Below the pieces are notes generated by a model. It had not been told where the DNA came from. It ran no database searches and worked only from the letters and a program-made list of their open reading frames with translations. A DNA stretch of 60,053 nucleotides, the filler included, from Candidatus Babelota bacterium (GTDB lineage: Bacteria > JAGOBX01): the NCBI GenBank assembly GCA_017999075.1. It is 7 parts of 7 records of this genome, joined end to end, with 100 filler letters (N's around TTAATTAATTAA, not from the genome) between each part and the next. Parts side by side here need not be neighbours in the genome. Positions count along the whole stretch, not along the records: positions 1 to 8,606 come from JAGOBX010000131.1; 6 more parts are not named here. One strand, 5' to 3'. Made by a program: the position numbers and the translations under genes. Below are positions 1 through 44,682 of this stretch, piece after piece (positions within the stretch are counted from its first letter, which is position 1; every line of letters starts with the position of its first letter).

Positions 1-91
1 ATATAAAATTATTTGTAATATTATGAATTCAAAATTTTTAAAATTTTGGTTAATAAAAAGTGCAAGAAATGGTTAAGAATAAATAAAATCC

Positions 92-182
92 GTCGTCTAT
101 CTTATGACTGCCGTTCGCGCTGCGCGCGACCTACGGACAGTCGCCTGCGGCGACCGTCGGCAGTCATTATCCGATATATGAC
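92..182 (+). repeat. attC-like cassette recombination site 1 (non-canonical, TATC/GATA core)
   Basis: GTCGTCTATC-TT-ATGACTGCCG(104-113)...CGGCAGTCAT(158-167)-TATCC-GATATATGAC; GC-rich palindrome in AT-rich intergenic DNA. Confidence 0.85.
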
Positions 183-211
183 AGTGTTTTAAGAAAAAAT
201 GCAATAAACTG

Positions 212-240
212 TTGACATAACAACAATATCGTTGTATAGT
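212..240 (+). promoter_or_regulatory. sigma70 promoter with palindromic operator for the TA cassette
   Basis: TTGACA(212-217)-N17-TATAGT(235-240); ACAAC-N6-GTTGT inverted repeat at 220-235; ATG at 248 suggests a leaderless transcript. Confidence 0.7.
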
Positions 241-247
241 GCTGGTT

Positions 248-622
248 ATGGATGAAAAGGAATTTTCGGTATGCTTTTATTCAAAAGCAAACAACCAAAC
301 ACCAGTTGAAATATTTTTAGATTCGTTGAATACTAAAGAACAACAAAAAATAGTTGCTCATATTAAATTATTAGAAAAATACGGAAACAAGTTAGAAAGA
401 CCATATAGTGCATATTTACGTGATAAAATTTATGAACTTCGGATAAAGGTTTCACGAAATCAATATAGAATTTTTTATTTTTTCTATTTAGATAAGAAAA
501 TAATTTTAACAAATGCAATGATAAAAAAGACAGATGAAATTCCAATACAAGAAATCGAAAAAGCGGTATCTTATATGAATGATTTTATTACTCGATATAA
601 ACGAGGTGATATTAAATTATGA
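248..622 (+). CDS. RelE/HigB-family (Gp49-like) toxin
   Basis: PVEIFLDSL, LERPYSAYLRDKIYELR and YRIFYFF motifs; overlaps the downstream HTH gene. Confidence 0.85.
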   Translation: MDEKEFSVCFYSKANNQTPVEIFLDSLNTKEQQKIVAHIKLLEKYGNKLERPYSAYLRDKIYELRIKVSRNQYRIFYFFYLDKKIILTNAMIKKTDEIPIQEIEKAVSYMNDFITRYKRGDIKL

Positions 623-906
623 AAACATTAAAACAGTATATCACTGAAAAAGAAAAAAAAAGCCCAGGTTATAAAAAAGAAATAGAACGTGAATTTATAA
701 AAGCAGAGATATTTTATTTATTGCGCAAAACACGAGAAAAACATCAAATATCGCAAATAGAATTAGCACAGAAATGTCGTTTATCTCAGCAAGCTATTTC
801 GAAAATTGAAAATGCTAAAGATGATCATATTTCTCTGCACACATTAAATAAATATGTTAGTGCGTTGGGATATAGATTAAATTTTGCATTAGAACCTGCG
901 TTATGA
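619..906 (+). CDS. XRE-family HTH antitoxin (HigA-like)
   Basis: ISQIELAQKCRLSQQAISKIEN HTH; ATGA overlap with the toxin. Confidence 0.85.
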   Translation: MKTLKQYITEKEKKSPGYKKEIEREFIKAEIFYLLRKTREKHQISQIELAQKCRLSQQAISKIENAKDDHISLHTLNKYVSALGYRLNFALEPAL

Positions 907-913
907 AAACACC

Positions 914-1007
914 GTCATATATCTCGGAGTCTGCGCTCGCCGCTGCGCGGCGGCCTTGCGGTCAGACTGCTGCGCAGTCCGACGCAGACTCCTGTCCGAT
1001 AACCGAT
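914..1007 (+). repeat. attC-like site 2
   Basis: GTCATATATC-TC-GGAGTCTGCG-c-TCG...CGA-CGCAGACTCC-TGTCC-GATAACCGAT. Confidence 0.85.
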
Positions 1008-1028
1008 ATTTTTATTAAAGGGAAAAAT

Positions 1029-1775
1029 ATGGTGCAAATTATTTATTTTTTTATTACATTATTTCTAATATTTAGTAATTCATCTAATGCTTCAATATTA
1101 GGAATGGAGTATAAGGAAATAATATTTAATCAAAACGATACAACTATTGACGCAATATGGGCAGATAATTTAAAAATTACTCAAAGTGGACTTGAAAGTC
1201 CAAAATTAGAATCATTAATGAGTATTGAGACATGGATTAAAATTAATAAAATGTCCGCAGGTTATGCTTGGCGCCCACCTGAAAATTCTAATATTAGACT
1301 ATTTATTGATGGCATAGGTTCAGAGACATTTCCATTACAAGTTTATGTAAGATTTGGCTGTGATGGTAAACACTGGTCAACATGGTATAAAATGAATATA
1401 GATTTTAACTATAAATTTTTTAGGAAAAAAGCCAAGTGGATTTTTTCCTATGAACTTAGAATTCCCAAAGATAAACAAGAAAATGAATATTCAAAATTAT
1501 TTAGTGAATGGGGACAAACAGATGTAGCCTGGTCATCTGATGAAAATGCTTTTTGTGAATATTTGATAAATAAAAAGCCAGATTTTTTTAGAGACAATTT
1601 TCCATTTATCGGGTATTTACAGTTTCTTTTTGAAAGTTCTTCTTTAAAAGAAAAAATAATAATAAAATCTATAAGTATTGAATCGGCTTACGGGGTTGGC
1701 GGTATGCATTCAAAACCTAAAGAAGGATATATACCTGATTATAATAGCAAATGGCACTTAAATATTGGCAAATAA
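1029..1775 (+). CDS. hypothetical secreted protein (cassette ORF)
   Basis: ATG at 1029 after AAGGGA, followed by a signal-peptide-like MVQIIYFFITLFLIFSNSSNA; the ORF-track extension to 903 merely reads through site 2. Confidence 0.75.
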   Translation: MVQIIYFFITLFLIFSNSSNASILGMEYKEIIFNQNDTTIDAIWADNLKITQSGLESPKLESLMSIETWIKINKMSAGYAWRPPENSNIRLFIDGIGSETFPLQVYVRFGCDGKHWSTWYKMNIDFNYKFFRKKAKWIFSYELRIPKDKQENEYSKLFSEWGQTDVAWSSDENAFCEYLINKKPDFFRDNFPFIGYLQFLFESSSLKEKIIIKSISIESAYGVGGMHSKPKEGYIPDYNSKWHLNIGK

Positions 1776-1779
1776 AAAC

Positions 1780-1876
1780 ATCGGTTATCTTAGACCTGCC
1801 GTTCGCGCCGCAAGCGTCGCGACCCTACGGGACACCGCGCAAGCGCGGCGTCGGCAGGTCTTATCCGATAACTGCC
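1780..1876 (+). repeat. attC-like site 3
   Basis: ATCGGTTATC-TT-AGACCTGCCG...CGGCAGGTCT-TATCC-GATAACTGCC. Confidence 0.85.
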
Positions 1877-1896
1877 ATTTTTAAAAAGAGAAAAAT

Positions 1897-2781
1897 ATGA
1901 TTATAGATTCACACACTCATTTATTTGATGTATTCACAGGACATAAAATTAAAAAAGGAATAGTTAATTATCCTTTAGGCATAACAATGCTGTTAGAATG
2001 GTTGGGATATAAAAAAGGAAATAATAATAAAACTCCGAATAAAATCATTCGATATTTAGCATTATATGATAATTTAAAACGTTCCCAATGCGGAACAATA
2101 GAAAATTTAGTTTTTTATATGTCTGAAAATAAAATTCAAAAATCATTAGTTTGGGCGATTGAACCATTTGTGAAAACAAAAGGACTAATTGAAATATATA
2201 AAGATAATAATAATTTATTGCCAATAGCCTCAATTAACTTATTTAATAATCCTGATATTGATATTGTTAATGAATTTAAAAAAAATATTTCGGATAAAGT
2301 ATTTGGATTAAAGATACATCCAATAATTCAAAATATTCATCCGGCATCCGAAATATTTTTAAATGTTTTAGAAGAATATGCAATTTATAAAAAACCTGTT
2401 TTTTTACACACCGGGTCAAGCTCGGTTGTATTTAGAGAATATAATAATTATGAATATGGTTCAATATATAATTTTGAAAAAGCGGTTAAAACATTTCCGA
2501 ATATTCAATTTATATTTGGACATATGGGTAATAATACGCCTTTGGAGGCAATTGATTTAGCAAAAAAATATTCTAATATAATTCTCGAAACAAGTTATCA
2601 AAACAATAAAATAATCAAAATTGCTATAGATAATATAGGTATTGAACGAATAATATTTGGCTCTGATTTTCCGTATTCAAGACAATATTATGCTTTGAAA
2701 GAAATTTTTAAATTAAAAATTTCTTACGATAATTTAGAAAAAATATTATTTAAAAATATAAAAAGAATTATTAACATTTAA
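1897..2781 (+). CDS. amidohydrolase family (Amidohydro_2) metal-dependent hydrolase
   Basis: IIDSHTH, GLKIHP, FLHTG, FGHMG and IIFGSDFPY motifs. Confidence 0.85.
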   Translation: MIIDSHTHLFDVFTGHKIKKGIVNYPLGITMLLEWLGYKKGNNNKTPNKIIRYLALYDNLKRSQCGTIENLVFYMSENKIQKSLVWAIEPFVKTKGLIEIYKDNNNLLPIASINLFNNPDIDIVNEFKKNISDKVFGLKIHPIIQNIHPASEIFLNVLEEYAIYKKPVFLHTGSSSVVFREYNNYEYGSIYNFEKAVKTFPNIQFIFGHMGNNTPLEAIDLAKKYSNIILETSYQNNKIIKIAIDNIGIERIIFGSDFPYSRQYYALKEIFKLKISYDNLEKILFKNIKRIINI

Positions 2782-2782
2782 A

Positions 2783-3664
2783 ATGAAAAAAATTGTAATA
2801 TTGACATTTGAAAGTTTGGGTTCTGGATATTTAATTTATCATATTATGAATAGTAAATATCAGAAATATATTGATCAAATAATTATTAGTAAAAAATCAA
2901 AGCCGTTAAATTATGTATTTGCATATTTACAAAAATTTCATTTTAAAATTTTCATTTTAAAAATATTCGAATTTTTTTCTTTTAAAATTTTCAATTTATT
3001 GTATTTAGTTACAAAAAAAAAAATAGGAATTCCAAGTATAAAACAAATGTGTAAAGAAAATAATATTTTTTTTTGTTATGAAAATAATATTAATTCTAAG
3101 TTTAATATAAATATATTTCAGACAAAAAAAGAAACAGTTTATTTGTCTATTTATTTTGATCAAATTATTAAGAAGGAATTATTGCAAAGTATGGGCGGAA
3201 ATTGTTATAATATACACCCCGCATTGTTGCCTAATTATGGAGGACCAATTCCGACTTTTTGGATGTTATTTAATAAAGAAAGTGAATGTGGAATTACATT
3301 ACATAAAATTGATACGAATATTGATGAAGGGATAATTTATTATCAACAGAAATTTAAAATAACTCCAAATGATAGTGTTCAATCTCTTTATTTAAAATCT
3401 ACATGTAAAGCAACGAATATTTTGTATAAATTTTTAGACGATATACTTTCATCACAAAATGAAATTAAATCAATTGAAAACGAATATAAGAAATCATATT
3501 ATACATTCCCATTGAAAGATATGAATATAAATCATATTAAATTATTATCATGGAAATATTTTTTTTCATGGGTAAAGAATTTTAAAAACGGCAGTTATCT
3601 TGACCTTTTACCTCGCACCGCAAGCGGTGCGGCGGCTTTGCCGTCATCGCTTCGCGACGAGTAA
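2783..3664 (+). CDS. formyltransferase family protein (Fmt/ArnA-N-like)
   Basis: NIHPALLPNYGGPIP, GITLHKID and IDEGII motifs; the C-terminus runs into site 4. Confidence 0.85.
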   Translation: MKKIVILTFESLGSGYLIYHIMNSKYQKYIDQIIISKKSKPLNYVFAYLQKFHFKIFILKIFEFFSFKIFNLLYLVTKKKIGIPSIKQMCKENNIFFCYENNINSKFNINIFQTKKETVYLSIYFDQIIKKELLQSMGGNCYNIHPALLPNYGGPIPTFWMLFNKESECGITLHKIDTNIDEGIIYYQQKFKITPNDSVQSLYLKSTCKATNILYKFLDDILSSQNEIKSIENEYKKSYYTFPLKDMNINHIKLLSWKYFFSWVKNFKNGSYLDLLPRTASGAAALPSSLRDE

Positions 3665-3693
3665 AAGGTCTATCCGATAGACGCAATGCAATC
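3590..3693 (+). repeat. attC-like site 4
   Basis: GGCAGTTATC-TT-GACCTTTTAC-c-TCG...CGA-GTAAAAGGTC-TATCC-GATAGACGCAATGCAATC. Confidence 0.85.
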
Positions 3694-3779
3694 TCAACGA
3701 AAGCGGCTACGATTTTCTTTAAAACTCGCAACTAAAACTATTGACAAATAAAGCACTTACAATATTTTTTGAAAAATCC

Positions 3780-3808
3780 CTAAAGTTTTTTTGAGATTCA
3801 GACGATAT
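3780..3808 (+). promoter_or_regulatory. sigma28/SigD (FliA) promoter
   Basis: CTAAAGTTT...GACGATAT (TAAA-N16-GACGATAT) upstream of a flagellin gene. Confidence 0.65.
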
Positions 3809-3903
3809 ATAAGACAGTTTGTGAAATTTATATTGAGGTGATTATAGAAATAATCATTTAATTAAAATCTAATTCGACTTAAAAATGTCGATACATAATT
3901 AAA

Positions 3904-4085
3904 CCTTGAGTTGAAAACTGGCACTTTTCTAAAGTCCAAGGTAAAACACACGCTTCCGAATTTAAGTTCGGGGCGTAAGCTTTTACGCTTTGGACTTCGG
4001 TATGCCAGTACCTCAACTCAGGGCGTTGAGTTTACGCCCTTTGCACTTTCAGAAAACAACTCAAAAAAAATAGCGTAAATTCAAC
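3904..4085 (+). other. structured 5' leader (long hairpin 3904-4023 plus hairpin 4025-4085)
   Basis: nested complementary segments CCTTGAGTTGA/TCAACTCAGGG, ACTGGCA/TGCCAGT, AAGTCCAA/TTGGACTT, GTAAAA/TTTTAC and GTTGAGTTTACGC/GCGTAAATTCAAC. Confidence 0.55.
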
Positions 4086-4096
4086 ATTTAAAATAA

Positions 4097-4108
4097 CTCA
4101 AGGATGAG
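4097..4108 (+). promoter_or_regulatory. CsrA-type binding hairpin overlapping the RBS
   Basis: CTCA-AGGA-TGAG places GGA in a hairpin loop next to the GAGGTG Shine-Dalgarno of the flagellin. Confidence 0.6.
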
Positions 4109-4119
4109 GTGATTTTTAA

Positions 4120-5763
4120 ATGGATTTGATGAGCGCTATAACTAATTCACTCGCAAACGGCGCATACAGAATGATGAACTTGCAACGAGACCAAATGTTG
4201 CAACATCAGAACAAAATATCTTCAGGAAAACGGATAAATTCAGCATCCGATGATGCTGCCGGACTTGCAATATCTAAAAAATTTGAAACACAAACAAGAG
4301 GGCTTCAACAAGCTAACAGAAATGTTCAAGACGGAATTTCTATGTTGCAAACATTAGAAGGCGGTCTTGGTGGAATACACGATATATTACAACGAATGAG
4401 AAGTCTTGCAGTTCAATCAGCAAATGATACATTAACAAATGAAGACAGAAACTTAATTCAATTAGAAATAAACGAATTGATTAAAGAAATCGACAGAAAA
4501 CAAACAAGTTGTGAATTTAATACAATCAAGTTATTAAAAGGAGTTTTCAATAATCCTAAATTAGGCGAATGGAATCAAATAACACAATTGAATGGTTCTT
4601 CTATAGCAGGTTTTGATGTTAGCACTGACGGAAAACTAATTACTTTTTCTTCAAATAAGGATGACGGAATAACAAGCAAATTATATGTAATGAATTCTGA
4701 CGGAAGTAATATTAAAAAATTAACCGATTTTCCGTCATATATGTCAAAATTTACTCCAGATAATGAAAACATAACATTTACAGGTATTCCACCAGGCGAA
4801 ACTCTTCGTGAAGCTATGATGATTAGTGTTGACGGAAATAATTTAACAAACCTTTCAAATACTCCGCTTTCGGCAGAATCTTATTCTCAAGTATCTCCTG
4901 ACGGAAATACTGTTATTTGGTCTCAAAGCGGAAATTTAATTAAATCTGATTTTCCTGACTTAAACCCATCTGCAACAGGTAATGTAATTGGCAATTGGTT
5001 TAATTATTTTCCGTCAGGTGATAAAATAATCTATCATCGCAACGTCGTCACAAGTTGGGAAATATTTATTGCTGATTTAGAAGGAAATGTTTTACAACAA
5101 GTTACTAATAATTCCCTTTCTGATTTAGTCTACGGAAATGGAATTTCACCAGATGAAAGTAAAATTGTTTTTTCAAGGCATTCGTCTAATAGTTCTACCG
5201 ATGATACAGGCGAATTATATATGATGAATATTGACGGCAGTGAGTTAACTCGATTAACAGATAATAATTCATTTGAAGGATTGAGTCAATTATCCGAAGA
5301 CGGAAAAAAACTTTACTTTGTTTCGAATAAAACAGGTGCTCAAGAAATTTATACTGCCGAAATGGAATATGACGGTTTATTCTTACATGCTGGCGCAAAT
5401 ATGAATCAAACTATTGAATTAAAACTTGACAATATGAGTTCATACGCACTAGGAATTCGTGGATTATCCGTTGAAACTCAAACTCAATCAGAAGCAGCAT
5501 TAGGACTAATGGATAATGCTATAAATAAAGTTTCCGCATATAGAGCAAAAATTGGAGCTCTTCAAAATCGCCTTGAACATACTTTTAATTATAACGGAGC
5601 AGCCGAAGAAAATCAGACATCTGCCAAATCACGAATCGAAGATGCAGACATTGCTCGTGAAATGATTGAATACACAAAACGAGATATGCTCGATAAAATT
5701 TCAATGTCAATGCTTTCACAAGCAAACTTAAAGCAAAAAAATATTTTAAATTTATTTCAGTAG
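4120..5763 (+). CDS. fliC: flagellin with TolB-like (PD40) beta-propeller in the variable region
   Basis: Flagellin_N (SSGKRINSASDDAAGLAI, LQRMRSLAVQSANDT) and Flagellin_C (RAKIGALQNRLEH, SRIEDADIAREM); the centre has repeated SPDG/STDGK...I.FSS...LY.MN.DGS blades. Confidence 0.9.
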   Translation: MDLMSAITNSLANGAYRMMNLQRDQMLQHQNKISSGKRINSASDDAAGLAISKKFETQTRGLQQANRNVQDGISMLQTLEGGLGGIHDILQRMRSLAVQSANDTLTNEDRNLIQLEINELIKEIDRKQTSCEFNTIKLLKGVFNNPKLGEWNQITQLNGSSIAGFDVSTDGKLITFSSNKDDGITSKLYVMNSDGSNIKKLTDFPSYMSKFTPDNENITFTGIPPGETLREAMMISVDGNNLTNLSNTPLSAESYSQVSPDGNTVIWSQSGNLIKSDFPDLNPSATGNVIGNWFNYFPSGDKIIYHRNVVTSWEIFIADLEGNVLQQVTNNSLSDLVYGNGISPDESKIVFSRHSSNSSTDDTGELYMMNIDGSELTRLTDNNSFEGLSQLSEDGKKLYFVSNKTGAQEIYTAEMEYDGLFLHAGANMNQTIELKLDNMSSYALGIRGLSVETQTQSEAALGLMDNAINKVSAYRAKIGALQNRLEHTFNYNGAAEENQTSAKSRIEDADIAREMIEYTKRDMLDKISMSMLSQANLKQKNILNLFQ

Positions 5764-5775
5764 GAGAATTTTTAA

Positions 5776-6348
5776 ATGGGTGATTATAATCAGTGGTATA
5801 ATTTCACATATGAAGGAATATTTTCTTTAGCGTCATGGGATAATTTCAATGAAGATATTGAAAAAAAAATTATATGTCTTTTTTCATGGATGCCCTGTGC
5901 TATAATGAATATTACTCATTCAGGAAAAGGAAAAAATCGAATCACAAAAGCTCAAGTATATAACATTGAAAATTGTAAAGAAAAAATTTTATCTGTCAAA
6001 TCAATCGCTGAATCATTTAAAAATATAAAATTGGTAGATATCGACATTAAAAATAAAAAAATAAAACAAAATATTCTTGATTTAAGTAAACCACTTGTCG
6101 AAATATTTGGAACAGTAGGAGCAAGTAAATTTTTACATTTTAGTTTTCCATTTTTTTTTATTATGTGGGATCGAAAAATAAGAAATCATTATAAATTAAA
6201 AGACAATGAAATAGGTTATTATAATTATTTATTGAATGCAAAAGAAGCATTAAATAATTCCGATATTTTAAATATAGCAAAAAATAAATTTCCTAATAAC
6301 ATTCTGCGTGGTTTAGATATATACAGAATGGAAACTATTCGAGATTAA
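5776..6348 (+). CDS. hypothetical protein
   Basis: 190-aa ORF with AGGAG RBS directly after the flagellin; GASKFLHFSFP..FIMWD motif. Confidence 0.7.
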   Translation: MGDYNQWYNFTYEGIFSLASWDNFNEDIEKKIICLFSWMPCAIMNITHSGKGKNRITKAQVYNIENCKEKILSVKSIAESFKNIKLVDIDIKNKKIKQNILDLSKPLVEIFGTVGASKFLHFSFPFFFIMWDRKIRNHYKLKDNEIGYYNYLLNAKEALNNSDILNIAKNKFPNNILRGLDIYRMETIRD

Positions 6349-6376
6349 AATTATTTTATCCACATATAATAATGCC

Positions 6377-6489
6377 GATTGCACTGCGTCTATCATAGTC
6401 CTATACCTCGTGCTTCGCACGGCTGCTGCGCAGTCATTTTGCCTTCGGCAAAACGAGTATAGGACATTACCGTTATCCGCAAAAAGCGC
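6377..6489 (+). repeat. attC-like site 5 (right core GTTA)
   Basis: GATTGCACTGCGTCTATC-AT-AGTCCTATAC-c-TCG...CGA-GTATAGGACA-TTACC-GTTATCCGC. Confidence 0.85.
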
Positions 6490-6570
6490 AGAGAGAAAAT
6501 TCATTTGCTTAATTATTTATTTTGATATATTATGTAATCATTTATAAAATGAAATGTGGAGAACTAACTA

Positions 6571-7734
6571 ATGTTTAAAGAAATTCTATTAACTTATGAT
6601 AGTAATTTAACAAAAAATGAAATAATGTCAATAAATATTTTCAATAATTCATTTGATGAAAGTGATATTAAATTGGAATATAATTGTAATAAAATTATTG
6701 TTTTGTTACGTGAAGTTGACTTGGATAATTTGAAACGTGTATCTCAAGGTTTATTAAAATGTTCAGAAAAACCAATTTTTTCGGATATTATTACTCGTAT
6801 TGAAGCTATTAAAAGTTATGGCATCAATGGGAAAAAAAGAAATTATATTGATTACAATAAAGAACGGAAAGTAAAAAATCGAACAGAAAAAGAAGAAAAG
6901 CGAGGACAATATTATTATACAAAAGGTAATGATTTTTCAAAAATAAATAATGACTTACCTAATGAATTTATTGATAAAATTATATCAGAAGATAGCGAAA
7001 TTTTTTTGAAAAAATTGCCAGATAATTCTATTGATTTGGTTTTTACTTCTCCGCCGTATAATTTTGGATTGGAATATGAAAAAAATGCGGATGATCATTA
7101 TTGGGATGATTATTTTAATAAATTATATAAAGTTTTTGAACAGTGTATTAGAGTATTAAAATATGGCGGCAGAATTATTGTAAATATTCAACCTCTTTTT
7201 TCAGATTATATTCCGAGTCATCACATAATAAGTAATTATTTCATCCAAAAAAAATTGATTTGGAAAGGAGAAATTTTATGGGAAAAAAATAATTATAATT
7301 GTAAATATACAGCTTGGGGAAGTTGGAAAAGTCCAAGTAATCCATATTTAAAATATACATGGGAATTTCTTGAAATATTCTCAAAAGGGAGTTTAAAAAA
7401 AGAGGGAAAATCTGGAAATATAGACATTATTGCAGATGAATTTAAACAATGGGTTGTTGCTAAATGGTCTATAGCTCCTGAAAGAGATATGAAAAAATTC
7501 AACCACCCTGCTATGTTCCCAGAAAAATTAGTTGAAAGAGTTATTAAACTTTTTAGTTATAAAAATGATGTTATTCTTGACCCTTTTAATGGAGTAGGAA
7601 CAACAACATTAGTTGCTAAAAAAAATGAGAGAAAATTTATTGGTATTGATATTTCTAACGAGTATTGTTCTACCGCGTTAAAAAGATTAGAAAATTTAAA
7701 AATAGAACAGGGGTTGTTTGCAAATGAATTATGA
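6571..7734 (+). CDS. site-specific DNA methyltransferase (N4/N6, beta class)
   Basis: FTSPPYN motif IV precedes HPAMFPEKL and ILDPFNGVGTT (motif I). Confidence 0.9.
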   Translation: MFKEILLTYDSNLTKNEIMSINIFNNSFDESDIKLEYNCNKIIVLLREVDLDNLKRVSQGLLKCSEKPIFSDIITRIEAIKSYGINGKKRNYIDYNKERKVKNRTEKEEKRGQYYYTKGNDFSKINNDLPNEFIDKIISEDSEIFLKKLPDNSIDLVFTSPPYNFGLEYEKNADDHYWDDYFNKLYKVFEQCIRVLKYGGRIIVNIQPLFSDYIPSHHIISNYFIQKKLIWKGEILWEKNNYNCKYTAWGSWKSPSNPYLKYTWEFLEIFSKGSLKKEGKSGNIDIIADEFKQWVVAKWSIAPERDMKKFNHPAMFPEKLVERVIKLFSYKNDVILDPFNGVGTTTLVAKKNERKFIGIDISNEYCSTALKRLENLKIEQGLFANEL

Positions 7735-8428
7735 AAAAATAAATGAATTAGTTAAAACTTATGAATCTGTTGTAAAAGTTGTCGATAAAAAAGCATCCGA
7801 AGAAGAACATCGAGCTTATGGTGGCGTTGTTCGAAGTGTCAAAGGTTGGTTGCAAGAACATTTAACAGAAGAAATAATAAAAATTGCTTGGGAAAATGTA
7901 GGTGGAAATAATTCAAGAATTGAAATTAATTCTCAAAAACAAATGATACCAATTAAAAAAGATTATATCATCAAAATTCAAGATGAAGAAATTAAAAATT
8001 TTATATTAGAAAATATTACAGATTATTTTTATGGATTGAGTGTGGATAAACAAATTTTTATTGATAATAATTTTGTTATTGGAATAGAATGTAAAGCATA
8101 TACGGAAAATGCGATGATAAAAAGAATCCTTGTTGATTTCAGTTTATTGAAAACAATTTTTCCGCAATTACAGTGTTATCTATTTCAGTTAGAAAGTCAA
8201 CTCGGTGGAGATTATTCAGAATTAAAGAAAATTACTTTTGGCAGCACGTCGACACATACTTTGATGTCATATTTTCCAGATGTTAGTTTAAATATTTTTA
8301 CTTTTTTGAAAGGTGAAAGAAAGGTTGATAAACCAATTCATAAATATGAACATTTCAAACCTATCGAAAAAGATAAATTAATAGAAGCAGTTGAATTAAT
8401 ATCAGAAGATATAAAAAGATTTTTATAA
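7724..8428 (+). CDS. putative type II restriction endonuclease
   Basis: overlaps the MTase; VDKQIF...GIECKAY resembles a PD-(D/E)xK motif. Confidence 0.7.
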   Translation: MNYEKINELVKTYESVVKVVDKKASEEEHRAYGGVVRSVKGWLQEHLTEEIIKIAWENVGGNNSRIEINSQKQMIPIKKDYIIKIQDEEIKNFILENITDYFYGLSVDKQIFIDNNFVIGIECKAYTENAMIKRILVDFSLLKTIFPQLQCYLFQLESQLGGDYSELKKITFGSTSTHTLMSYFPDVSLNIFTFLKGERKVDKPIHKYEHFKPIEKDKLIEAVELISEDIKRFL

Positions 8429-8433
8429 ACAGA

Positions 8434-8537
8434 GCGCTTTCAGCGGATAACTTGTGCTTTTACCTCACGCCTTCGGCGTGGCCGCTTCGCGGTCAGCGCT
8501 TCGCGCCGAGTAAAAGCACGGTTCGATAAATGCCATC
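8434..8537 (+). repeat. attC-like site 6 (left core TAAC)
   Basis: GCGCTTTCAGCGGATAAC-TT-GTGCTTTTAC-c...CGA-GTAAAAGCAC-GGTTC-GATAAATGCC. Confidence 0.85.
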
Positions 8538-8559
8538 TTTTTTAAAAACGAGGTGTATT

Positions 8560-8607
8560 ATGTTAACAGAAAAACAGATTGAAGATGTATTTGAACAATA
8601 TTATGAN
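8560..8607 (+). CDS. start of next cassette ORF (partial, MLTEKQIEDVFEQYY...)
   Basis: GAGGTG RBS then ATG after site 6; cut by the contig end. Confidence 0.55.
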
Positions 8608-8706
8608 NNNNNNNNNNNNNNNNNNNNNNNNNNNNNNNNNNNNNNNNNNNTTAATTAATTAANNNNNNNNNNNNNNNNNNNNNNNNNNNNNNNNNNNNNN
8701 NNNNNN

Positions 8707-17284: not shown

Positions 17285-17383
17285 NNNNNNNNNNNNNNNN
17301 NNNNNNNNNNNNNNNNNNNNNNNNNNNNTTAATTAATTAANNNNNNNNNNNNNNNNNNNNNNNNNNNNNNNNNNNNNNNNNNN

Positions 17384-17542
17384 NGCTATAAGTAATACGT
17401 CAGGAGGTATAGGAAAAAAAGAAGATTCCGCAAAAGACATTAAAATCAAAACCAAATTTCCATATTGAGTGTTGGCCCAGTGTAATGTCCAATTATAAAT
17501 ATATTTTACAGGTTTATTTATAAAATTCATAATTTTTTTCAT
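17384..17542 (-). CDS. YqaA/DedA family membrane protein (partial)
   Basis: SFAESSFFPIPPDVLLI motif. Confidence 0.8.
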
Positions 17543-19508: not shown

Positions 19509-20903
19509 TTATAATTTAGGTTTATAATATTTTTTTAGAATACTATCAGGAATTCTTTCAAAAAGTGAAACTGGAAGTTTAGAAAATAATTCCCAAACAA
19601 TATTCAACGATTCTTCTATTGTTCTGTTTTCAGAATAAGACTGGTTAATGAACACTTGTTCAAAACTGCGTGAAAAATCAAGAATAATTTTATCAGTTTC
19701 ATTCAAACTTTCTTCACCTATTACAGCTACAAGCGACGCAATTTCCTGAGACTGAGAATACAAAGCATTTAATTGACTTGCAACTTTATCATGATCATCT
19801 CTGGTTTTCCCTTCACCTATTCCGTCTTTCATCAGGCGGGAAAGAGAAGATAAAATATTTACAGGCGGATAAATATTTTTTTTAAAAAGAGATTTACTTA
19901 ATACTATCTGCCCTTCAGTAATGTATCCAGTCATATCAGGTATAGGATGAGTAATATCATCATTCGGCATAGTAAGAATCGGAATTTGCGTTATTGAACC
20001 TGATTTGCCATGAAGCCTTCCTGCGCGTTCGTAAATCGTAGACAAATCGCTGTACAAATATCCCGGAAATCCTTTGCGCGACGGAACTTCGCCTCTGCTT
20101 GATGAAAGTTCACGGAGAGCTTCACAATAATTAGTCATATCAGTCAAAATTACTAAAACATGATAATCTTCTTCAAAAGCTAAAAATTCAGCTGTAGTCA
20201 AAGCTGACCTGGGTATCATAATCCTTTCAATTATAGGATCATTGGCAAGATTAAGAAACATAACTACTTTATTAAAAGCGCCGCTTTCTTCAAAACTATT
20301 CCTGAAATAATATGCCGTATCATTTTTAATTCCCATTGCCCCGAAAACTACTGCAAATTTATCATTTGCCTTATCAGTAATATTAGCTTGCCGCGCAATC
20401 TGAGCTGCAAGCATATTATGCGGTAATCCTTCAGTTGAAAAAATCGGAAGTTTCTGGCCTCTTATAAGAGTTGCTAAAATATCAATTGCTGAAACCCCTG
20501 TTTGTATGCAGTCTTTAGGATAACTTCTGGATACAGGATTTATAGGTTCGCCATTAACATTTTTTTTTACGGACGACAATATTTCAGGACCATCATCAAG
20601 CGGTTTACCTAGAGCATTAAACGTCCGGCCAAGCATTTCAGCTGAAACCGGAAGCTCAAATGGCTTACCGAAGAATTTTATTTTGGTCTCCGCAAGATTT
20701 AAATCTTTAGTGCCTTCAAAAACCTGAACAACCGCAAAACTATCAGTTACTTCTATAACTTTCCCAGTCCGGCGAGAATCATCGTGTAATTGAATTTGAA
20801 CTAATTCATCATATCCTACTCCGCTTATATTTTCAATAACAATAAGGTTTCCCGAAGATTTTGTAATTCCTTTATATTCTTTCAATAACATATTTTTCAC
20901 CAT
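19509..20903 (-). CDS. atpB: V-type ATP synthase subunit B
   Basis: [21 protein letters not shown] and [12 protein letters not shown]. Confidence 0.95.
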
Positions 20904-22663
20904 TTCATATTAGAAATTTCATCATCAAATTTTTTCCAAACTTCATCAATCAAATAAAGTTCATTATTCTTGACTGTACTTTTAAGTTTGAACAAAACAT
21001 CATTTATTTTTAATTTTTTCAATAAATCAAACGAAACGCCTTTTATATTTAATTCTTTTAAGACATCATAATAATGATGATATAATTTCAACATTTTATA
21101 TTGTTTTTCCATAGAACAATAAGTGTCAACTTCATCATAAGCCCCCTGCTGAAGAAAACCAGTTTTTATCAAACGCGCAAAAAAAATAATTAATTTCTGA
21201 TTGTCTGCAAGCACATCATCTCCAACAAGTTTTACAATTTGAGACAATTCATTTTCAATTTGCATTATTTCCATTGTTTTATTAACTATCTGCATCCAAT
21301 CAGGCGAAACGTTTTTTTCCCAGTATTCACTCATTTCATTATAATATTCCGAATAGCTCTCCAGCCAGTTAATAGCAGGGTAATGCCTGGCATTTGCCAG
21401 ATTGCGATCAAGCCCCCAGAAACATCTGATAAAACGTTTTGTATTCTGAGTTACAGGTTCGCTGAAATCACCGCCAGGAGGTGAAACTGCGCCTATAACA
21501 CTTATAGAACCATTTGTTTTATTAAAATTCTGAACATATCCTGCCCGTTCATAAAATTCTGCAACTCTGCTTCCAAGATACGCAGGATATCCTTCTTCGG
21601 CTGGTATTTCTTCAAGTCTTCCGGAAATTTCACGCAAAGCTTCCGCCCATCTCGAAGTAGAATCAGCCATAATTGCAACATTATATCCCATATCTCTGAA
21701 ATATTCGCCAAGTGTTATTCCTGTATATATGCTGGCTTCACGCGCGGCAACAGGCATATTTGAGGTGTTTGCTATAAGTATTGTTCTTTCCATAAGAAGT
21801 TGACCTGAACGCGGATCAATTATTTTAGGAAAATCTTCAAGCACTTCAGTCATTTCATTTCCTCTTTCTCCACAGCCAACATAAACAATAAGATCAGCAG
21901 CGCTCCATTTTGCAAGTTGATGCTGAGTCATTGTTTTACCTGTCCCGAATCCGCCTGGTATAGCAGCAGTGCCTCCTTTGGCTAACGGAAAAAACGTATC
22001 TATAACACGCTGGCCAGTAATTAAAGGTTCTGCAGGAAGCAACCTTTGTTGAACCGGCCTTGAAATGCGAATAGGCCAATTCTGAAACATTTTAATTTCC
22101 TTTATGCCATTCGAAGTTTTAACTCGAAAAATAACAGTCTCTATATTGTAAACCCCATTAGGAATGTTTTCTATAATCTCGCCACTTATACCTATCGGTA
22201 CAAGAATTTTATGAACAATCATAGATGTTTCCTGTATTTCTGCAACAATATCCCCTGATTTAACAATATCTCCTTTGATTTTAAGAATTCTTACCTCCCA
22301 TTTTTTTTTACGGTCCAAAGTAGTAGACGAAACTCCTCTTGTAAGAAATTGTCCGGAAATCTGTTCAAGTTTTTTTAAAGGTCGTAAAATTCCATCATAC
22401 ATATTTCCAACAAGCCCCGGGCCTAATTCAGCATAAAGCGGAAAATTAGTGCGGTAATAAGGTTCTCCTGGTTTCAATCCGCAAGTATCTTCATAAACCT
22501 GAATGGTAGCAATATTATTATTCAATTCAATAACTTCTCCTGTAAGTTTAAGATTACCTGCTTGAATCAATTCAAACATTTTTACGTTTACCGCATTATC
22601 CAGTTTAACAACAGGTCCGTTTACATATATAATTTTTCCATTAGGCGTCTGCATAACAATCAC
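20897..22663 (-). CDS. atpA: V-type ATP synthase subunit A
   Basis: [18 protein letters not shown] and [14 protein letters not shown]. Confidence 0.95.
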
Positions 22664-25954: not shown

Positions 25955-26053
25955 NNNNNNNNNNNNNNNNNNNNNNNNNNNNNNNNNNNNNNNNNNNNTT
26001 AATTAATTAANNNNNNNNNNNNNNNNNNNNNNNNNNNNNNNNNNNNNNNNNNN

Positions 26054-26767
26054 NGCTTTACCTGTTTTTTTTATTGATTTAAGTATGGTATTTTTATCAA
26101 TGGGTTTTATTGTAGAAATATTTATCAATTCTGCCGAAATGCCTTTTTGTTTTAATAATTTAACGGATTGCATAGCGGAGTTCAATATGTACCCTGAAGA
26201 AATAATGGTTATATCAGAACCTTTCGAAATAATTTCCGATTTTCCGATTTTAAATTTTAAATTTAAATTTTTATGTATTGAAGGTTCGCCTGCAATTCCC
26301 AGTCTGAGATAAGCAGGTCCTTTAAAATTTACTAATTCCGATATCGTGCATTTAGTTTCAGCGGGATCAGATGGAGAAATCACTGTCATATTTGGCAAAG
26401 ACCGCATTAAAGCTATATCTTCAATAGAATGATGCGTTGGCCCAAGTAGACTGTATGAAACTCCGCCGCCCACGCCTATTATTTTAACATTAGTTTTTTG
26501 AATACACACATCTACCCTTATCTGTTCAAAGTTGCGCATTAAAACAAATGGAATTATTGTGTAACAGAACGGGATGAATCCGTTTAAAGCAAGTCCGGCA
26601 GCTACTCCTATCATATTAGCTTCGGAAACGCCTACATTAATAAATCTTTCAGGACATTCTTTTCTGAAATCGTCGAAAACTATTGCTCCGATATCAGCGG
26701 ATAACAGTATTATTTTTGAATTTTTAAATGCTTCGATTTTAAATTGTTCTATAAACGCGTTACGCAT
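26054..26767 (-). CDS. transketolase, pyrimidine-binding/C-terminal subunit (3' truncated)
   Basis: RFINVGVSEANMIGVAAG, EQIRVDVC and GPTHHSIED. Confidence 0.88.
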
Positions 26768-34571: not shown

Positions 34572-34719
34572 NNNNNNNNNNNNNNNNNNNNNNNNNNNNN
34601 NNNNNNNNNNNNNNNTTAATTAATTAANNNNNNNNNNNNNNNNNNNNNNNNNNNNNNNNNNNNNNNNNNNNCTTACACAGTGCTATTCTAATGACGATGG
34701 TCAAAAAATATTTGATATG

Positions 34720-36397: not shown

Positions 36398-39300
36398 CTA
36401 TTCCCCATACCTAATCTTTGCAACATTGATCGATTCATCCATAATCAAATCAATTTGATCGAAAGTAATCTTTAAGTTATGCAATTCTTTAATATCAAAT
36501 AAATAATCTTCAATAGTGTTTCTCATTTTATTTTGGACATCCGAATTATTCTGCCAGTCAACAATTTTTAATTCGCGTATAATGTCATCAATTTTTATTG
36601 CAACATCCGCATATAATTCTTTTAAATCAGATTGTATTTCTTCAGATTTTATTGCCTCGTTTACTATTCCGAAAAACGCTTTTGCCACATCGCGAGTTCG
36701 TAATTTTTCCGGCATCTCATCGCCGGTTCGATTACGCACAGAATTCATTATCGACTTGACCTGATTCAAATAATCAACTTCAGAAATTCTTTGTTCTCTA
36801 TATGCCTTTATCGTTTCTTCTAAAAGCTGAGAAAACTTTTTATAAAAAGCAGGATCTTCTTCCATTTTTTCATAAATTGATTTTTTAGTTCTGTTAGCGA
36901 TAGTGTCTGCCCTTGCTCGCAATCCTTTTATTTTGTTTACTTCCTGATCGAATTTTTCTTTATCGAAAATATTTACTAAATCAGTTATCCGTGTTACTTT
37001 CTCTGAAGTCACATAAGTATCAATAAGTTTTTGGACCTTTCCTTCATATTCCTTATAATCAATAGATTCAGCATATCGCTTTTTAACAGAAGTTCGTAAT
37101 TTTTGAAAAAACAATAAGTCAGTTTTATAATTTTTAATAGTTTTTTCAGGGGTTGCATCAACAAATTTAAATGTTGATAACGCAATATCAAGCGTCCTGG
37201 TATAGGAAGAAAGTTTATCATAAAATTTTTTCCTAATTTCTTCATTCCCTAAACAAACTTCATATTCTTCTTCATCCTGTTTATTTTTTAAAGTTTTAAA
37301 AATGTCCCAAAGTTCAGAATGTTTTTGCGGTAATTTATTTATTTCGGCCATAACATCAATCAGCGTTCCTGCAATATCATTTTCATCAAAACCAGCCAAT
37401 ACTCCATAATCTGTTAGAGCCTGATCTAATGCTCCCAATAATCCATAATAATCAATTATATATCCAAAATCTTTGCCTTCATATAAGCGGTTAACTCGCG
37501 CTATTGCCTGAAGCAGAGAATGTCCCTGCAATTTTTTTGTTAGATATAATACAGTATTTTTAGGCGCGTCAAATCCTGTCAGTAATTTATCTACTACAAT
37601 TATGATTTCAGGATACGCGCTTTTTTTAAAAGCGTTTATTAGTTGTTTGTTATAGGCATCCTCTGTTCCATATTTTTCCATTGCCGCTTTCCAAAAAATC
37701 AAAACATCTTCTTTGGCTCCGGTATATGTATCATCATAACCCTCGCGAGTATCCGGTCCTGAAATCAAAACATCGGAAGATACCATTCCGAAATCATCAA
37801 GATATTTTTTATATTTAATTGCTGCAGGTTGAGAAGGCGCGGCCAATTGACCTTTAAAAGGAGTGCCTTGCCAGGTGTTTTTAAAGTGAACACTTATATC
37901 ATAAGCAATCATTTTAATTTTTAATTCTGCTTGATTTAATTGATTTGCGGAACTGAATTTTTTCTTTAAATCAACTTTTTGGTCATCTGACAGATTTTCA
38001 GAAACTTTATCAAACCACGTATCAATAGCATTTTGCGTTACTTCCTGTTCCGCGTGTCTTCCTTCATATAACAACGGAACAACGGCTTTATCTTCTACAG
38101 CTTCATTTATAGTATAAGTATCTATTATGCCGCCGAAACGGTCAGCAGTATTCTTATCTTTTTTCATTAAGGGTGTTCCGGTAAAACCGATATAACAGGC
38201 ATTCGGTAATACTTTTTGCATCTGCACATTCAAAGAACCGTATTGACTACGGTGACTTTCATCTACCAACACAAAAATTTCTTTGGAATCATTGCTTATG
38301 CTTTTATTACTCAAAGCGCTTTCAAACTTATGAACAAGAGTTGTTATAATTTCATATTTTGATTTACTCACAAGTTCGGCAAGATGTTTTCCTGTTTTTG
38401 CCTGAACCGGTTCTTTTCCGCAGTTGTGAAAGGTTTTATAAATTTGGTCATCCAGATCAACACGGTCAGTAACAAGAAGAATTTTAGGGTTGAGAATGGA
38501 CGGCTGCAATACAATAGATTTAGCAAGCATAACCATTGTCAAAGATTTACCGCTGCCTTGCGTGTGCCACAGAACACCGCCAATTCTTTTTCCGCTATTA
38601 TCAAAAGTATTAAGGCGCTCAACTGTTTTATTAACTGCAAAATATTGTTTATAGCGTGCAATTTTCTTTTCTCCGCCATCGTATAAAGTAAATTTATACA
38701 TAAATTCAAGTAATCTTTCAGGCCGGCAAAGGCAATATAAAAGTTTATCCTGTTCAGTAATCAGCCGAGGATCTTTTTCCATTTCTAAAAAGTAATGTTT
38801 TACATAGTTAAATTTTTCGGAAAACAACCTTGCTTTCTGATCATCGCGAAGCGGTTTATTGACCATTTGCAGAAGTTCATTATTTATGTCCGAATCTTCT
38901 TTCCAAACATTCCAAAATTTAGCTGGAGTTCCTGCAGTCGCGTATTTAGCTTCATTTTTACTTATTGCTAAAACCAATTGAGAAAAAATGAAAAGCACCG
39001 GAATTTCTTCTTTATGCTGGTTACGTAGCATCTGAGAAATTGCTGTTTTTTCAAGCGTTTCTTTTAAGTCAGGAGATTTGCATTCAATCACAACAAGCGG
39101 AATACCATTTACAAAAAGAATAATGTCCGGTCGTCTGGTTTGATGAGACGCTGTTTTTTCGACTTCAAATTCTTCGGTTATATGGAATTCATTGTTCAAC
39201 GGATTTTCAAAGTCAATATATTTCATAGTAAAACTTTTAGTTTCATCGCCGATAGTTTGTTCAAAACTTTTCCCTAATGTAAGCAAGTCGTATATTTTTT

Positions 39301-39583
39301 CATTTGTTCTAACAAGTCCGTCAAACTGCACATCTTTCAATGTCTGAATTGCCTGTCGATATGCAGGCGGATGAAACTTATAATCTCTGCCTTTAAAACT
39401 AAATGTATTAATTTTATGCAACTGTTTTTCAAGAATATTTTCCAAAAGCACATGCGAGCGTTTTCCGTTCCGTTCTTCAAGCGCATCTTTGGGCGTCAAA
39501 TATTTATATCCCATATTTATTAACAACTGCAAAGCAGGTATTTGTGAAATATGATCTTCTTTGAAAGACGGTTTTTGATTCAT
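36398..39583 (-). CDS. hsdR: type I restriction endonuclease subunit R
   Basis: RPDIILFVNGIPLVVIECK, WHTQGSGKS, DESHRSQYG, FTGTP and LLTGFDAP. Confidence 0.95.
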   Translation of the reverse strand: MNQKPSFKEDHISQIPALQLLINMGYKYLTPKDALEERNGKRSHVLLENILEKQLHKINTFSFKGRDYKFHPPAYRQAIQTLKDVQFDGLVRTNEKIYDLLTLGKSFEQTIGDETKSFTMKYIDFENPLNNEFHITEEFEVEKTASHQTRRPDIILFVNGIPLVVIECKSPDLKETLEKTAISQMLRNQHKEEIPVLFIFSQLVLAISKNEAKYATAGTPAKFWNVWKEDSDINNELLQMVNKPLRDDQKARLFSEKFNYVKHYFLEMEKDPRLITEQDKLLYCLCRPERLLEFMYKFTLYDGGEKKIARYKQYFAVNKTVERLNTFDNSGKRIGGVLWHTQGSGKSLTMVMLAKSIVLQPSILNPKILLVTDRVDLDDQIYKTFHNCGKEPVQAKTGKHLAELVSKSKYEIITTLVHKFESALSNKSISNDSKEIFVLVDESHRSQYGSLNVQMQKVLPNACYIGFTGTPLMKKDKNTADRFGGIIDTYTINEAVEDKAVVPLLYEGRHAEQEVTQNAIDTWFDKVSENLSDDQKVDLKKKFSSANQLNQAELKIKMIAYDISVHFKNTWQGTPFKGQLAAPSQPAAIKYKKYLDDFGMVSSDVLISGPDTREGYDDTYTGAKEDVLIFWKAAMEKYGTEDAYNKQLINAFKKSAYPEIIIVVDKLLTGFDAPKNTVLYLTKKLQGHSLLQAIARVNRLYEGKDFGYIIDYYGLLGALDQALTDYGVLAGFDENDIAGTLIDVMAEINKLPQKHSELWDIFKTLKNKQDEEEYEVCLGNEEIRKKFYDKLSSYTRTLDIALSTFKFVDATPEKTIKNYKTDLLFFQKLRTSVKKRYAESIDYKEYEGKVQKLIDTYVTSEKVTRITDLVNIFDKEKFDQEVNKIKGLRARADTIANRTKKSIYEKMEEDPAFYKKFSQLLEETIKAYREQRISEVDYLNQVKSIMNSVRNRTGDEMPEKLRTRDVAKAFFGIVNEAIKSEEIQSDLKELYADVAIKIDDIIRELKIVDWQNNSDVQNKMRNTIEDYLFDIKELHNLKITFDQIDLIMDESINVAKIRYGE

Positions 39584-39671
39584 AACGAACTCCAATTTAT
39601 TAATTTACCACGAACATACACTAACAAACACGAACATTTTTTGTAACGAATTAACTCGGATCTTCACGAAT

Positions 39672-42600: not shown

Positions 42601-43140
42601 CCTTTTGTAATTTTGGATTTCCCTTCTGCTTTTAAATTTTCACAAAATATTTTTAAAAACATTGGATTGTAATATTCAGGCAGTAATAAAGGTATAGAAG
42701 GAATTTCTAATTTATAAAAATTAAAAAACTGCCTGATTGCTTCAAATCCTAAATCATTAAACCCATTATGAACTATTCTTATAAGTTTATTATTTTTTAA
42801 AAGTTCATCAGGGATCACTGTATCTTCATATGTTGCTCGTATACTATATCCTATGGATAGATACTCATATTGTTCGGCAACTTCAATCATTCCTGCAATA
42901 TAAGTTTTCCAAAAATGTCTTTCTTCACTTTCATTAAGAGCATCAATTAAAATTAGACATCTTTGGTTAGATAATTGACCTAAAGCGTTTAATGCACCTA
43001 AAAATTCCTCACGAGAACAGTTTAATCCGATTCTATCCAACATTTGCTTCCACGGATCATTATTTTTAAAATTCATACCCAAAAATAACAATGCCGGCTT
43101 TCCAGATAAAATCTGTCGACTGATTATCTCACAAAATAAG
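39672..43140 (-). CDS. large STAND/NACHT-like ATPase, Avs (AVAST)-like anti-phage protein (5' truncated)
   Basis: Walker B LILIDALNE, NPMFLKIFC, RDRATKAL and ERIGKKYQWIA...YEGPWQ...REIDPS; >1139 aa within an R-M cluster. Confidence 0.65.
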
Positions 43141-43581
43141 NNNNNNNNNNNNNNNNNNNNNNNNNNNNNNNNNNNNNNNNNNNNTTAATTAATTAANNNN
43201 NNNNNNNNNNNNNNNNNNNNNNNNNNNNNNNNNNNNNNNNTTCTTTATTAAGAAAATAAATTAATCAATGCAGCGCAGATGTTTGTAAAAATAATTTACA
43301 TAATACTGCGCTGCTTTATTAAATAACAAAAATTGAAAATTTCTTGCCAATAAGTTTTATATTTTATTATCTTATAAAAGATATTAAAAAATATAACTTT
43401 TACTTTATCCTTAATTCACAAACCCGCATATCTGGTAATTCGACAATTACAGTAACACTGCGTTAAGATATTATTTGATTATACAGGAAAAATATTGTTA
43501 ATATGAACAATATTTTGCAACCAATCTTCTTTAAGTTAGTATAACTAAACAAGAGTAATTAAATTTTTAGGAGGCGACAAT

Positions 43582-44655: not shown

Positions 44656-44682
44656 CGTGGTAAAAGCACAAGTTACACGACC
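44656..44682 (-). repeat. truncated left half of an attC-like site
   Basis: minus-strand TAACTTGTGCTTTTACC (44675-44659) is identical to 8448-8464 of site 6; lies just after the doc stop codon. Confidence 0.7.

Follow-up and report, generated by a model that had tools for sequence, protein, structure and literature searches.

A probable integron-type cassette array with a GAT/ATC-type family of attC sites in an uncultured wastewater bacterium

Six folded sites separate co-oriented gene modules

The DNA analysed here (the window) is a stretch of 60,053 nucleotides from Candidatus Babelota bacterium (GenBank assembly GCA_017999075.1), and its first contig (JAGOBX010000131.1, positions 1–8606) carries six GC-rich palindromic sites that separate a series of gene modules, an arrangement that probably represents an integron-type cassette array with a variant family of attC recombination sites. 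The window consists of seven contigs joined by N linkers (8607–8706, 17285–17384, 25955–26054, 34572–34671, 43141–43240 and 51619–51718, each made of two 44-N runs flanking TTAATTAATTAA), and the array contig is therefore limited to positions 1–8606, the other six parts being separate contigs of ~8.6 kb each. The six sites, of ~80 nt each, have a GC content of 46–58%, while the remainder of the array contig has 26.8%. All predicted genes between them are encoded on the + strand, and the sites are co-oriented as well. A preliminary description of this DNA had reported six GC-rich palindromes separating co-oriented modules, and all six were found at the places given, with every gene on the + strand. 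A strict site pattern matched three times in the window against 0.00 matches expected by chance, and the bottom strand of each of the six sites folds with a z-score between −3.6 and −4.75, a stability equalled by at most 1 in 200 shuffled sequences. Chance thus falls far short of explaining the six sites, and the observation is real. At both ends, the contig breaks off within the array.

Each cassette extends from the nucleotide that follows the G of a G|WTA core as far as the G of the following core and therefore carries 17 nt of the right-hand box, R′, at its 5′ end. The coordinates below follow this layout and refer to the + strand; site cores are measured from TAWC to GWTA, and bit scores come from a covariance model of the site family (R1). 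Site 1 (84–190, core 98–176, 80.7 bits) has a left-hand box, R″, that ends with TATC at 98–101 and an R′ that begins with GATA at 173–176 and continues into 14 nt of cassette 1. This cassette (174–998) encodes a Gp49/HigB-like toxin (248–622) and a helix-turn-helix antitoxin (619–906), has a promoter-like site at 212–240 (11/12 promoter match), and ends with site 2 (906–1015, core 920–1001, 88.4 bits). Cassette 2 (999–1867) contains a single open reading frame (ORF) of 248 aa (1029–1775) that matches no family and has a ribosome-binding site ~28 nt past R′; it leads into site 3 (1772–1884, core 1786–1870, 78.6 bits). Cassette 3 (1868–3676) comprises an amidohydrolase gene (1897–2781) and a formyltransferase-like gene (2783–3664), the ORF of which extends into site 4 (3582–3693, core 3596–3679, 74.1 bits). 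Cassette 4 (3677–6472) is composed of a 440-nt leader with a promoter-like site at 3741–3768, a flagellin gene (4120–5763) and an uncharacterised 190-aa ORF (5776–6348). Site 5 (6377–6489, core 6391–6475, 63.0 bits) is a hybrid with TATC on its left and GTTA on its right. It is followed by cassette 5 (6473–8525), which is of the GTT/AAC type and encodes a type II DNA methyltransferase (6571–7734) and a type II restriction enzyme (7718–8428, E = 1e-101), and by a second hybrid, site 6 (8434–8542, core 8448–8528, 70.4 bits), with TAAC left and GATA right. Only the start of cassette 6 (8526–8606) is present, its ORF, which begins at 8560, being truncated by the contig end.

The toxin–antitoxin and restriction–modification cassettes possess promoter-like sites of their own, whereas the other cassettes are compact and apparently promoterless, with a ribosome-binding site ~30 nt past R′; the ORFs of cassettes 2, 3 and 6 start 28–35 nt past R′. 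Overall, the array has the compact, co-oriented cassettes of an integron. In the flagellin of cassette 4 (4120–5763, +), a PD40 beta-propeller is inserted between the N- and C-terminal helical regions. The flagellin leader (3680–4119) contains GC-richer inverted repeats at ~3900–4080 that belong to no Rfam family, and a match of the pattern scan at 3901–4028 turned out to be a false hit and not a site.

The two ends of each cassette pair with one another

Scanning metagenome contigs with the strict site pattern yielded 72 matches. Six of them have a perfect stem and lie on contigs of 1.2–3.6 kb, while the other 66 have more than three mismatches in the 10-nt stem. The six related contigs hold twelve sites, which together with the six of the window make up the 18 sites counted below, and three of these contigs (L055, L071 and L075) add six cassettes to the five of the window. 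In all 11 cassettes, the 18 nt following a site are paired with those that precede the next one, at a mean of 16.0 of 18 positions. In comparison, the two flanks of one and the same site pair at 10.2/18, and 295 non-adjacent pairings averaged 9.75, with only five reaching 15. The five flank pairs that had initially been pointed out within the window are exact (17, 17, 17, 17 and 16 of 18), and the proposal that this is a cassette array, each cassette bearing the matching half of its own site, extends to 11/11 cassettes.

Base 2 of the core triplet tracks the cassette rather than the physical site, three cassettes being of the GTT/AAC type and eight of the GAT/ATC type. Sites such as those at 6391–6475 and 8448–8528 are therefore hybrids, of which there are six overall. 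This covariation places the exchange point to the left of triplet base 2 and to the right of the spacer, which is the G|TT position used in integrons, and the 5′ end of every cassette complements the R″ that it carries, as expected of a crossover just past the G of R′. With TATC on the left in 5/6 and GATA on the right in 5/6 of the window sites, the cores are as first described, and the predominance of a non-canonical GAT/ATC over GTT/AAC holds for the enlarged set.

The sites share a conserved fold with a strand bias

On the top strand, the R″ box comprises 18 nt and ends with TATC in 15/18 sites and with TAAC in 3/18. The R′ box, likewise 18 nt long, starts with GATA (15/18) or GTTA (3/18) and has a G at position 8 and an A at position 11. 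R″ is followed by a spacer of 2–3 nt (TT in 14 sites, TC in three, ATA in one), and R′ is preceded by a spacer of 5–6 nt, which reads TATCC in 10/18 sites; the two spacers enclose three mini-hairpins, which are framed by two matching stem arms of 10 nt. The 9-nt palindrome TATCCGATA is found in 10/18 sites. Taken together, the cores fit RYYYAWC / GWTRRRY: the RYYYAxC / GxTRRRY frame is kept, and the triplets within it are ATC and GAT in 15/18 sites, AAC in 3/18 and GTT in 3/18.

Two of the twelve metagenome sites duplicate window sites exactly, leaving 16 unique sites for the fold statistics. In their alignment, compensatory double changes occur at 10/10 pairs of the outer 10-bp stem, and 99.4% of its cells are paired. 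The covariation score of the whole 22-pair structure is 0.718, as compared to 0.19 for shuffled alignments (0/500 reach the observed score) and no more than 0.137 when the partners are slid. Pairing amounts to 76–78% in hairpins 1 and 3, whose counts are weaker because these hairpins align less well, and the same three-hairpin shape is predicted for every bottom strand. The predicted stability of the bottom strand exceeds that of the top strand in 16/16 unique sites, by a mean of 2.4 kcal/mol. Moreover, C-GNA-G triloops, which are unusually stable in DNA, account for 30 of 46 predicted loops on the bottom strand vs 0 of 38 on the top strand. The bottom strand also forms fixed G·T pairs, each corresponding to an A·C mismatch on the top strand, in hairpin 1 (12/16 sites) and at position 11 of the R helix. 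In a gap-free comparison, R position 11 is mismatched in 10/11 cassettes, as the sole mismatch in seven and together with one or two others in three, and the eleventh cassette, on L055, has an extra base at this very position.

The 10-bp stem contains no bulge in any of the 16 sites and thus lacks the extrahelical L-box bases of attC; the 3-nt excess in the R′-side spacer, together with two bulged mini-hairpins, may stand in for them. An unpaired spacer between the R helix and the stem is present, measuring 2–3 nt vs 5–6 nt on its two sides, whereas 11 canonical control sites have ~5 vs 5–6 nt. A terminator scan scored none of the six window sites as a terminator, the only match within a site being an inner hairpin of site 5, and no T-run lies behind the site stems. 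A CG dinucleotide at the foot of hairpin 1 is invariant or nearly so across sites. In 12/16 sites this CG pairs with TG (alignment columns 21–22 and 42–43), so that the bottom strand forms one C-G pair and one G·T pair there, while the surrounding stem varies freely; the foot may be a protein contact.

A cassette and a site core recur in other contexts

On the metagenome contig L071, cassette 3 is found at 97.9% identity over 1819 nt, with another site upstream and another cassette downstream. The shared sequence starts at CGATAACTGCC and stops at GATAG, so that the breakpoints fall at the GATA cores. On L047, an 80-nt stretch spanning the site-1 core is 100% identical and sits between other cassettes. 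Parts of the array contig occur in twenty public runs from 14 studies; one run, possibly the source run, has 92% of the contig's sampled words, and the others have 6–40%. Four runs were compared with the contig, using short assembled Logan contigs. In a run of a second study, the restriction–modification cassette is covered without differences and the pieces begin at 6472, while a third study has a run with a piece of cassette 3 that starts at 1862. Both positions are cassette edges, beyond which the run contigs carry unlike sequence. Stretches of the array that these runs leave uncovered carry no weight as evidence.

Site models, canonical controls and wider searches

R1 recovers all known sites at 63–88 bits. 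On 100 unrelated loci (54 of the 66 weak-stem metagenome matches and 46 genome loci, 644 kb in total) it finds nothing at E values up to 0.01, and on the canonical control loci it finds no canonical site, its best score there being 12.8 bits (E = 2.8) outside the cassette arrays. It also matches L060 at 19–187 (−), a 169-nt site with what seems to be a long insertion (64.7 bits), and L084 at 1–67 (−), where the site is cut by the contig end. The controls were plasmid-borne arrays, namely an integron from Shewanella, a six-cassette class 1 array, a class 2 array and an array with only one cassette; the chromosomal integron of Shewanella benthica was set aside as its contig stops right after intI. 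Control cores read RYYYAAC / GTTRRRY, their spacers measure ~5 and 5–6 nt, and their stems contain single bulged bases. R′/R″ pairing, read by eye at five junctions, covers 8–12 nt in these arrays. One canonical Shewanella site has several small hairpins with TGC/TAC loops, and a branched terminal structure is therefore not foreign to attC. From 11 canonical attC sites we also built a stand-in model (R2), which finds 13 canonical sites, two of them beyond its training set. In one of the controls, the plasmid integron of Shewanella xiamenensis (L137, 8982–14312), two group II intron reverse-transcriptase genes lie inside the cassette array; an association of group II introns with integrons is described in the accessible part of PMC7923331.

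Several further searches gave no additional members of the family. The strict pattern had nine matches in viral contigs, none with the stem, and blastn of positions 1–8000 against a plasmid collection returned no match. Rfam gave 0 hits in the window at the gathering score and one chance-level hit on 1–8606 at relaxed thresholds. The six related metagenome contigs (at most 3.6 kb) contain only cassette genes and no ORF of integrase size. In the literature searched, which excluded supplements, no natural GAT-type attC family was found, which is not proof that none has been described.

The array is best explained by a variant attC family

Like the attC sites of chromosomal integrons and of attC-site clusters that have no integron-integrase (CALINs), the sites described here are imperfect palindromes at the 3′ end of each co-oriented cassette. 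They share with attC the RYYYAxC / GxTRRRY boxes, a boundary just past the core G and a cassette start that complements its own R″. Their bottom strand is favoured by energy, G·T pairs, a purine-rich composition and GAA/GCA loops, again as in attC; the available text of PMC5027507 describes more G:T pairs on the bottom strand, a stabler bottom strand and purine enrichment for attC sites, whose terminal loop has a GAA conserved on the bottom strand. As in chromosomal integrons, similar site cores accompany unrelated cassettes, and the cargo comprises toxin–antitoxin, restriction–modification and defence genes. The GAT triplet has precedents as well. According to the portion of PMC2811028 at hand, triplet base 2 tolerates mutation in reactions of IntI1, recombination becomes more frequent when T is replaced by A, and GAT is reported as a preferred secondary site. 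In the accessible part of a second study, cassette insertion into the E. coli genome by IntI1, IntI2 and IntI3 follows a GWT consensus (bioRxiv 10.1101/2022.09.11.507474), and the available part of PMC8352920 contains nothing on triplet variants. As far as these partial sources go, the present sites thus resemble attG sites and GAT mutants of attC and attI1, where G|WT with W = A is accepted or preferred by IntI1 and triplet base 2 need not match between partner sites. They differ in that attG sites are unfolded duplex genomic targets and the mutants were made in the laboratory, whereas GAT is here the natural majority, folded, and accompanied by ATC in R″.

Given the shared core frame, crossover position and strand traits, the GTT cassettes in the same arrays and the GAT-tolerant integrases, the simpler reading is that an integron-type integrase, an enzyme that we infer, acts on a variant family of attC sites. 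We estimate a probability of roughly 0.78 that this is an integron-type cassette array with a variant attC family; it would be either a sedentary chromosomal integron or an attC cluster without a nearby integrase. The preliminary description had instead proposed a divergent, possibly undescribed shuffling system; a separate system of that kind is not supported, because the core frame, the crossover position and the strand traits are integron-like, and further because 3 of the 11 cassettes in the same arrays are GTT/AAC and known integrases accept GAT.

A number of observations nevertheless weigh against an integron-type array. The triplet is GAT/ATC in 15/18 sites, although AAC/GTT is described as the only conserved stretch of attC in the accessible text of PMC5027507 and as its most conserved part in that of PMC4889954. 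Unlike in attC, the spacers measure 2–3 vs 5–6 nt and the 10-bp stem is free of single bulged bases. Two textbook features, AAC/GTT in most sites and the extrahelical bases, are thus lacking, which is why we class the family as a variant. The canonical stand-in model R2 finds 0/18 family sites at E values up to 10; with filters off on 1–8606 it gives no full-length hit, only partial ones of 5.3 bits at site 2 and 8.3 bits at site 6. This agrees with the original prediction of weak or no hits to attC models, with the proviso that R2 is small, dominated by one attC type and distinct from the model of IntegronFinder. In a collection of 185,579 species with one genome per species, the strict pattern had 46 matches, none with the stem. 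As previously noted for the array contig, no recombinase is encoded there: no tyrosine recombinase was found among its nine scanned ORFs or among 30 of the 34 other window ORFs of at least 120 aa. Neither an integrase nor attI nor a Pc promoter was seen on a contig whose ends lie inside the array, and these ends explain why no recombinase gene is visible. By the definition in the accessible part of PMC4889954, which also describes integrase-less attC clusters as common, a CALIN holds two or more attC sites, intI being absent within 4 kb; the present contig has six sites and no intI on 8.6 kb, and with both ends within the array an integrase may lie just beyond. Of the signs of mobility that had been called for at the outset, a change of neighbours was found for cassette 3, and neither a circular junction nor an excision joint was seen in the short assembled Logan contigs; the joints listed there, with sides of 21–24 letters, are not counted as evidence for excision or circles. 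Further departures from canonical attC are the fixed three-hairpin terminal junction, sites of 55–65% GC in a host of 27% GC, and R′/R″ helices of 17–18 nt in which position 11 is a fixed G·T pair.

For a variant attC family, the sites suggest the following pathway, in which an enzyme, a single-stranded substrate, a circular intermediate and current activity would all have to be assumed. Each cassette is ordered as R′, one or two genes, R″, a 2–3-nt spacer, the stem with its three mini-hairpins, a 5–6-nt spacer and the final G. When single-stranded, the bottom strand would fold into the site shape and could be cut by a tyrosine recombinase of the integron-integrase type at the equivalent of the top-strand G|WT. 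Exchange between two sites would free the cassette in circular form, with R″ and R′ joined in a helix of 17–18 bp that has one G·T at position 11, and exchange with attI or another site would re-insert it.

That the recombinase differs materially from known integron integrases we regard as rather unlikely. Such an enzyme might belong to a deep IntI branch reading G|AT, with strand choice relying on the 5-nt bulge, the fixed G·T pairs and the three-hairpin junction in place of extrahelical bases, or it might be a non-IntI enzyme that converged on cassette shuffling. If the recombinase were indeed different, the 18-nt R helix with its position-11 wobble would be a recognition element, and perhaps a trace of how the lineage makes new cassettes. 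The closest competitor to a variant attC family, though an improbable one, is a convergent cassette system in which a non-integron recombinase, either another tyrosine recombinase or a single-strand HUH enzyme, reads TATC / TATCC-GATA and the three-hairpin fold. Such a system would fit the lack of an integrase among the scanned ORFs and the silence of the canonical stand-in model, as well as the departures in triplet, spacer geometry, stem bulges and 18-nt R pairing; TATCCGATA, the palindrome of 10/18 sites, could serve it as a duplex binding site, and the host is remote, its V-ATPase subunit A having a nearest relative of 70% identity among 5.8 billion proteins. However, the core frame, crossover, bottom-strand bias, G·T pairs, GAA/GCA loops and cassette layout are those of integrons, GTT/AAC cassettes (3/11) share the same arrays, a canonical Shewanella attC also has several small hairpins, and, within the parts of the sources available, known integrases accept GAT.

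A very improbable explanation is that the sites do not move cassettes at all and are palindromes of the REP (repetitive extragenic palindromic)/BIME (bacterial interspersed mosaic element) or PATE type, or hairpins that stabilise or terminate transcripts. REP/BIME elements with their RAYT (REP-associated tyrosine transposase) proteins, and hairpin elements derived from the insertion sequences IS200/IS605, are GC-rich intergenic hairpins with a conserved tetranucleotide beside the fold that are likely read single-stranded. The present sites are likewise GC-rich intergenic palindromes with an adjacent tetranucleotide, TATC on both sides of the fold, and near-identical cores beside unrelated genes. 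What sets them apart is that they delimit gene modules with mutually pairing ends that are exchanged whole at the cores: the flanks of one site are unpaired (10.2/18, the background level) while those across a cassette are paired (16/18), cassette 3 is transferred as one block whose breakpoints fall at the cores, sites and genes are all co-oriented, and the stems have no T-run and were not scored as terminators. An assembly or binning artefact, namely a chimeric contig stitched together at the recurrent hairpins, with a spurious array order as the result, is also highly unlikely: short-read assemblers can be misled by GC-rich cores that recur, the related contigs measure only 1.2–3.6 kb and the window is a set of binned contigs, but random stitching would break the 18-nt flank pairing, which holds at every window junction and on three other contigs with at least two sites, and one run, though possibly the source run, has 92% of the contig's sampled words. 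As to other modular systems, the pdif (XerC/XerD) sites of Acinetobacter plasmids are 28-bp duplex sites of alternating orientation. Gene modules between short recombination sites, found in varied contexts, are common to pdif modules and the present array, whereas the sites described here are co-oriented 80-nt folds with a strand bias.

A variant attC family of this kind bears on how integrons are detected, given that AAC/GTT has been treated as the constant of attC and detection tools were trained on sites having it. The natural family described here, from a remote uncultured lineage, has a GAT/ATC majority and a different spacer and bulge geometry, which suggests that integron-type arrays are perhaps under-counted in such lineages. 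The tolerance of IntI1 for GAT, seen in the laboratory, also gains a counterpart in nature, and the sites of the family are ready substrates for studying strand choice without extrahelical bases and the role of a long R helix with a fixed G·T. The restriction–modification, PDC-S11 and toxin–antitoxin cargo is in line with the idea that chromosomal integrons store defence genes, as put forward in the accessible part of bioRxiv 10.1101/2024.07.02.601686.

A second cassette locus and the host

The seventh site mentioned in the preliminary description is present on another contig of the window, at 45576–45656 on the minus strand (64.8 bits with R1, E = 6e-13), and its core belongs to the same family as the third site of L075. 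Its own R′ is decayed, reading TATAT-AGCC where TATCC-GATA is expected. The associated cassette (45649–46740, −) has its R′, GATAGCAGAAATTTTTTT, at 46740–46723, which matches the reverse complement of its R″ at 15/18 positions, and encodes a 357-aa ORF that matches the candidate defence family PDC-S11. A truncated remnant at 44659–44675 (−) retains only the left half of a site, a TAAC-TT-stem arm like that of site 6; read from 44675 to 44659, it follows a Fic gene (44691–45083) and a 75-aa ORF without known family (45089–45316). The decay of site 7 and the half-site remnant indicate that cassettes are present at a second locus in this bin and are eroding there. The site-7 cassette is flanked by a 23-nt exact direct repeat (47100–47078 and 45534–45512, minus strand) that is part of a longer similar stretch and may stem from the doubling of a regulatory region or represent a target duplication. 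Divergent from this cassette, 47162–51194 (+) encodes a sigma factor of the extracytoplasmic function type that has a long C-terminal extension (445 aa) and, after it, a 900-aa protein that weakly matches Csx29, the type III-E TPR-CHAT protein.

The host is an uncultured wastewater bacterium, and the array contig's membership of the bin rests on binning. Other bin contigs encode flagellar, V-ATPase and lipopolysaccharide-heptose genes. Among 5.8 billion proteins, the relative nearest to the V-type ATPase subunit A (20897–22663, −) is the one at 70% identity, and the next ones, from unrelated lineages, reach at most 66%. Ribosomal protein S1 is 27–38% identical to its counterparts in the 12 of 15 genomes of diverse phyla in which it was matched, and at most 33% identical among the matches listed from 401 genomes of one phylum. 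The host therefore appears to be an AT-rich member of a poorly sampled deep lineage. On another contig of the bin, at 36398–43091 (−), a gene for an anti-phage NTPase, Avs2 (1101 bits, exceeding the curated cut-off), adjoins one for the type I restriction subunit HsdR, forming a defence island.

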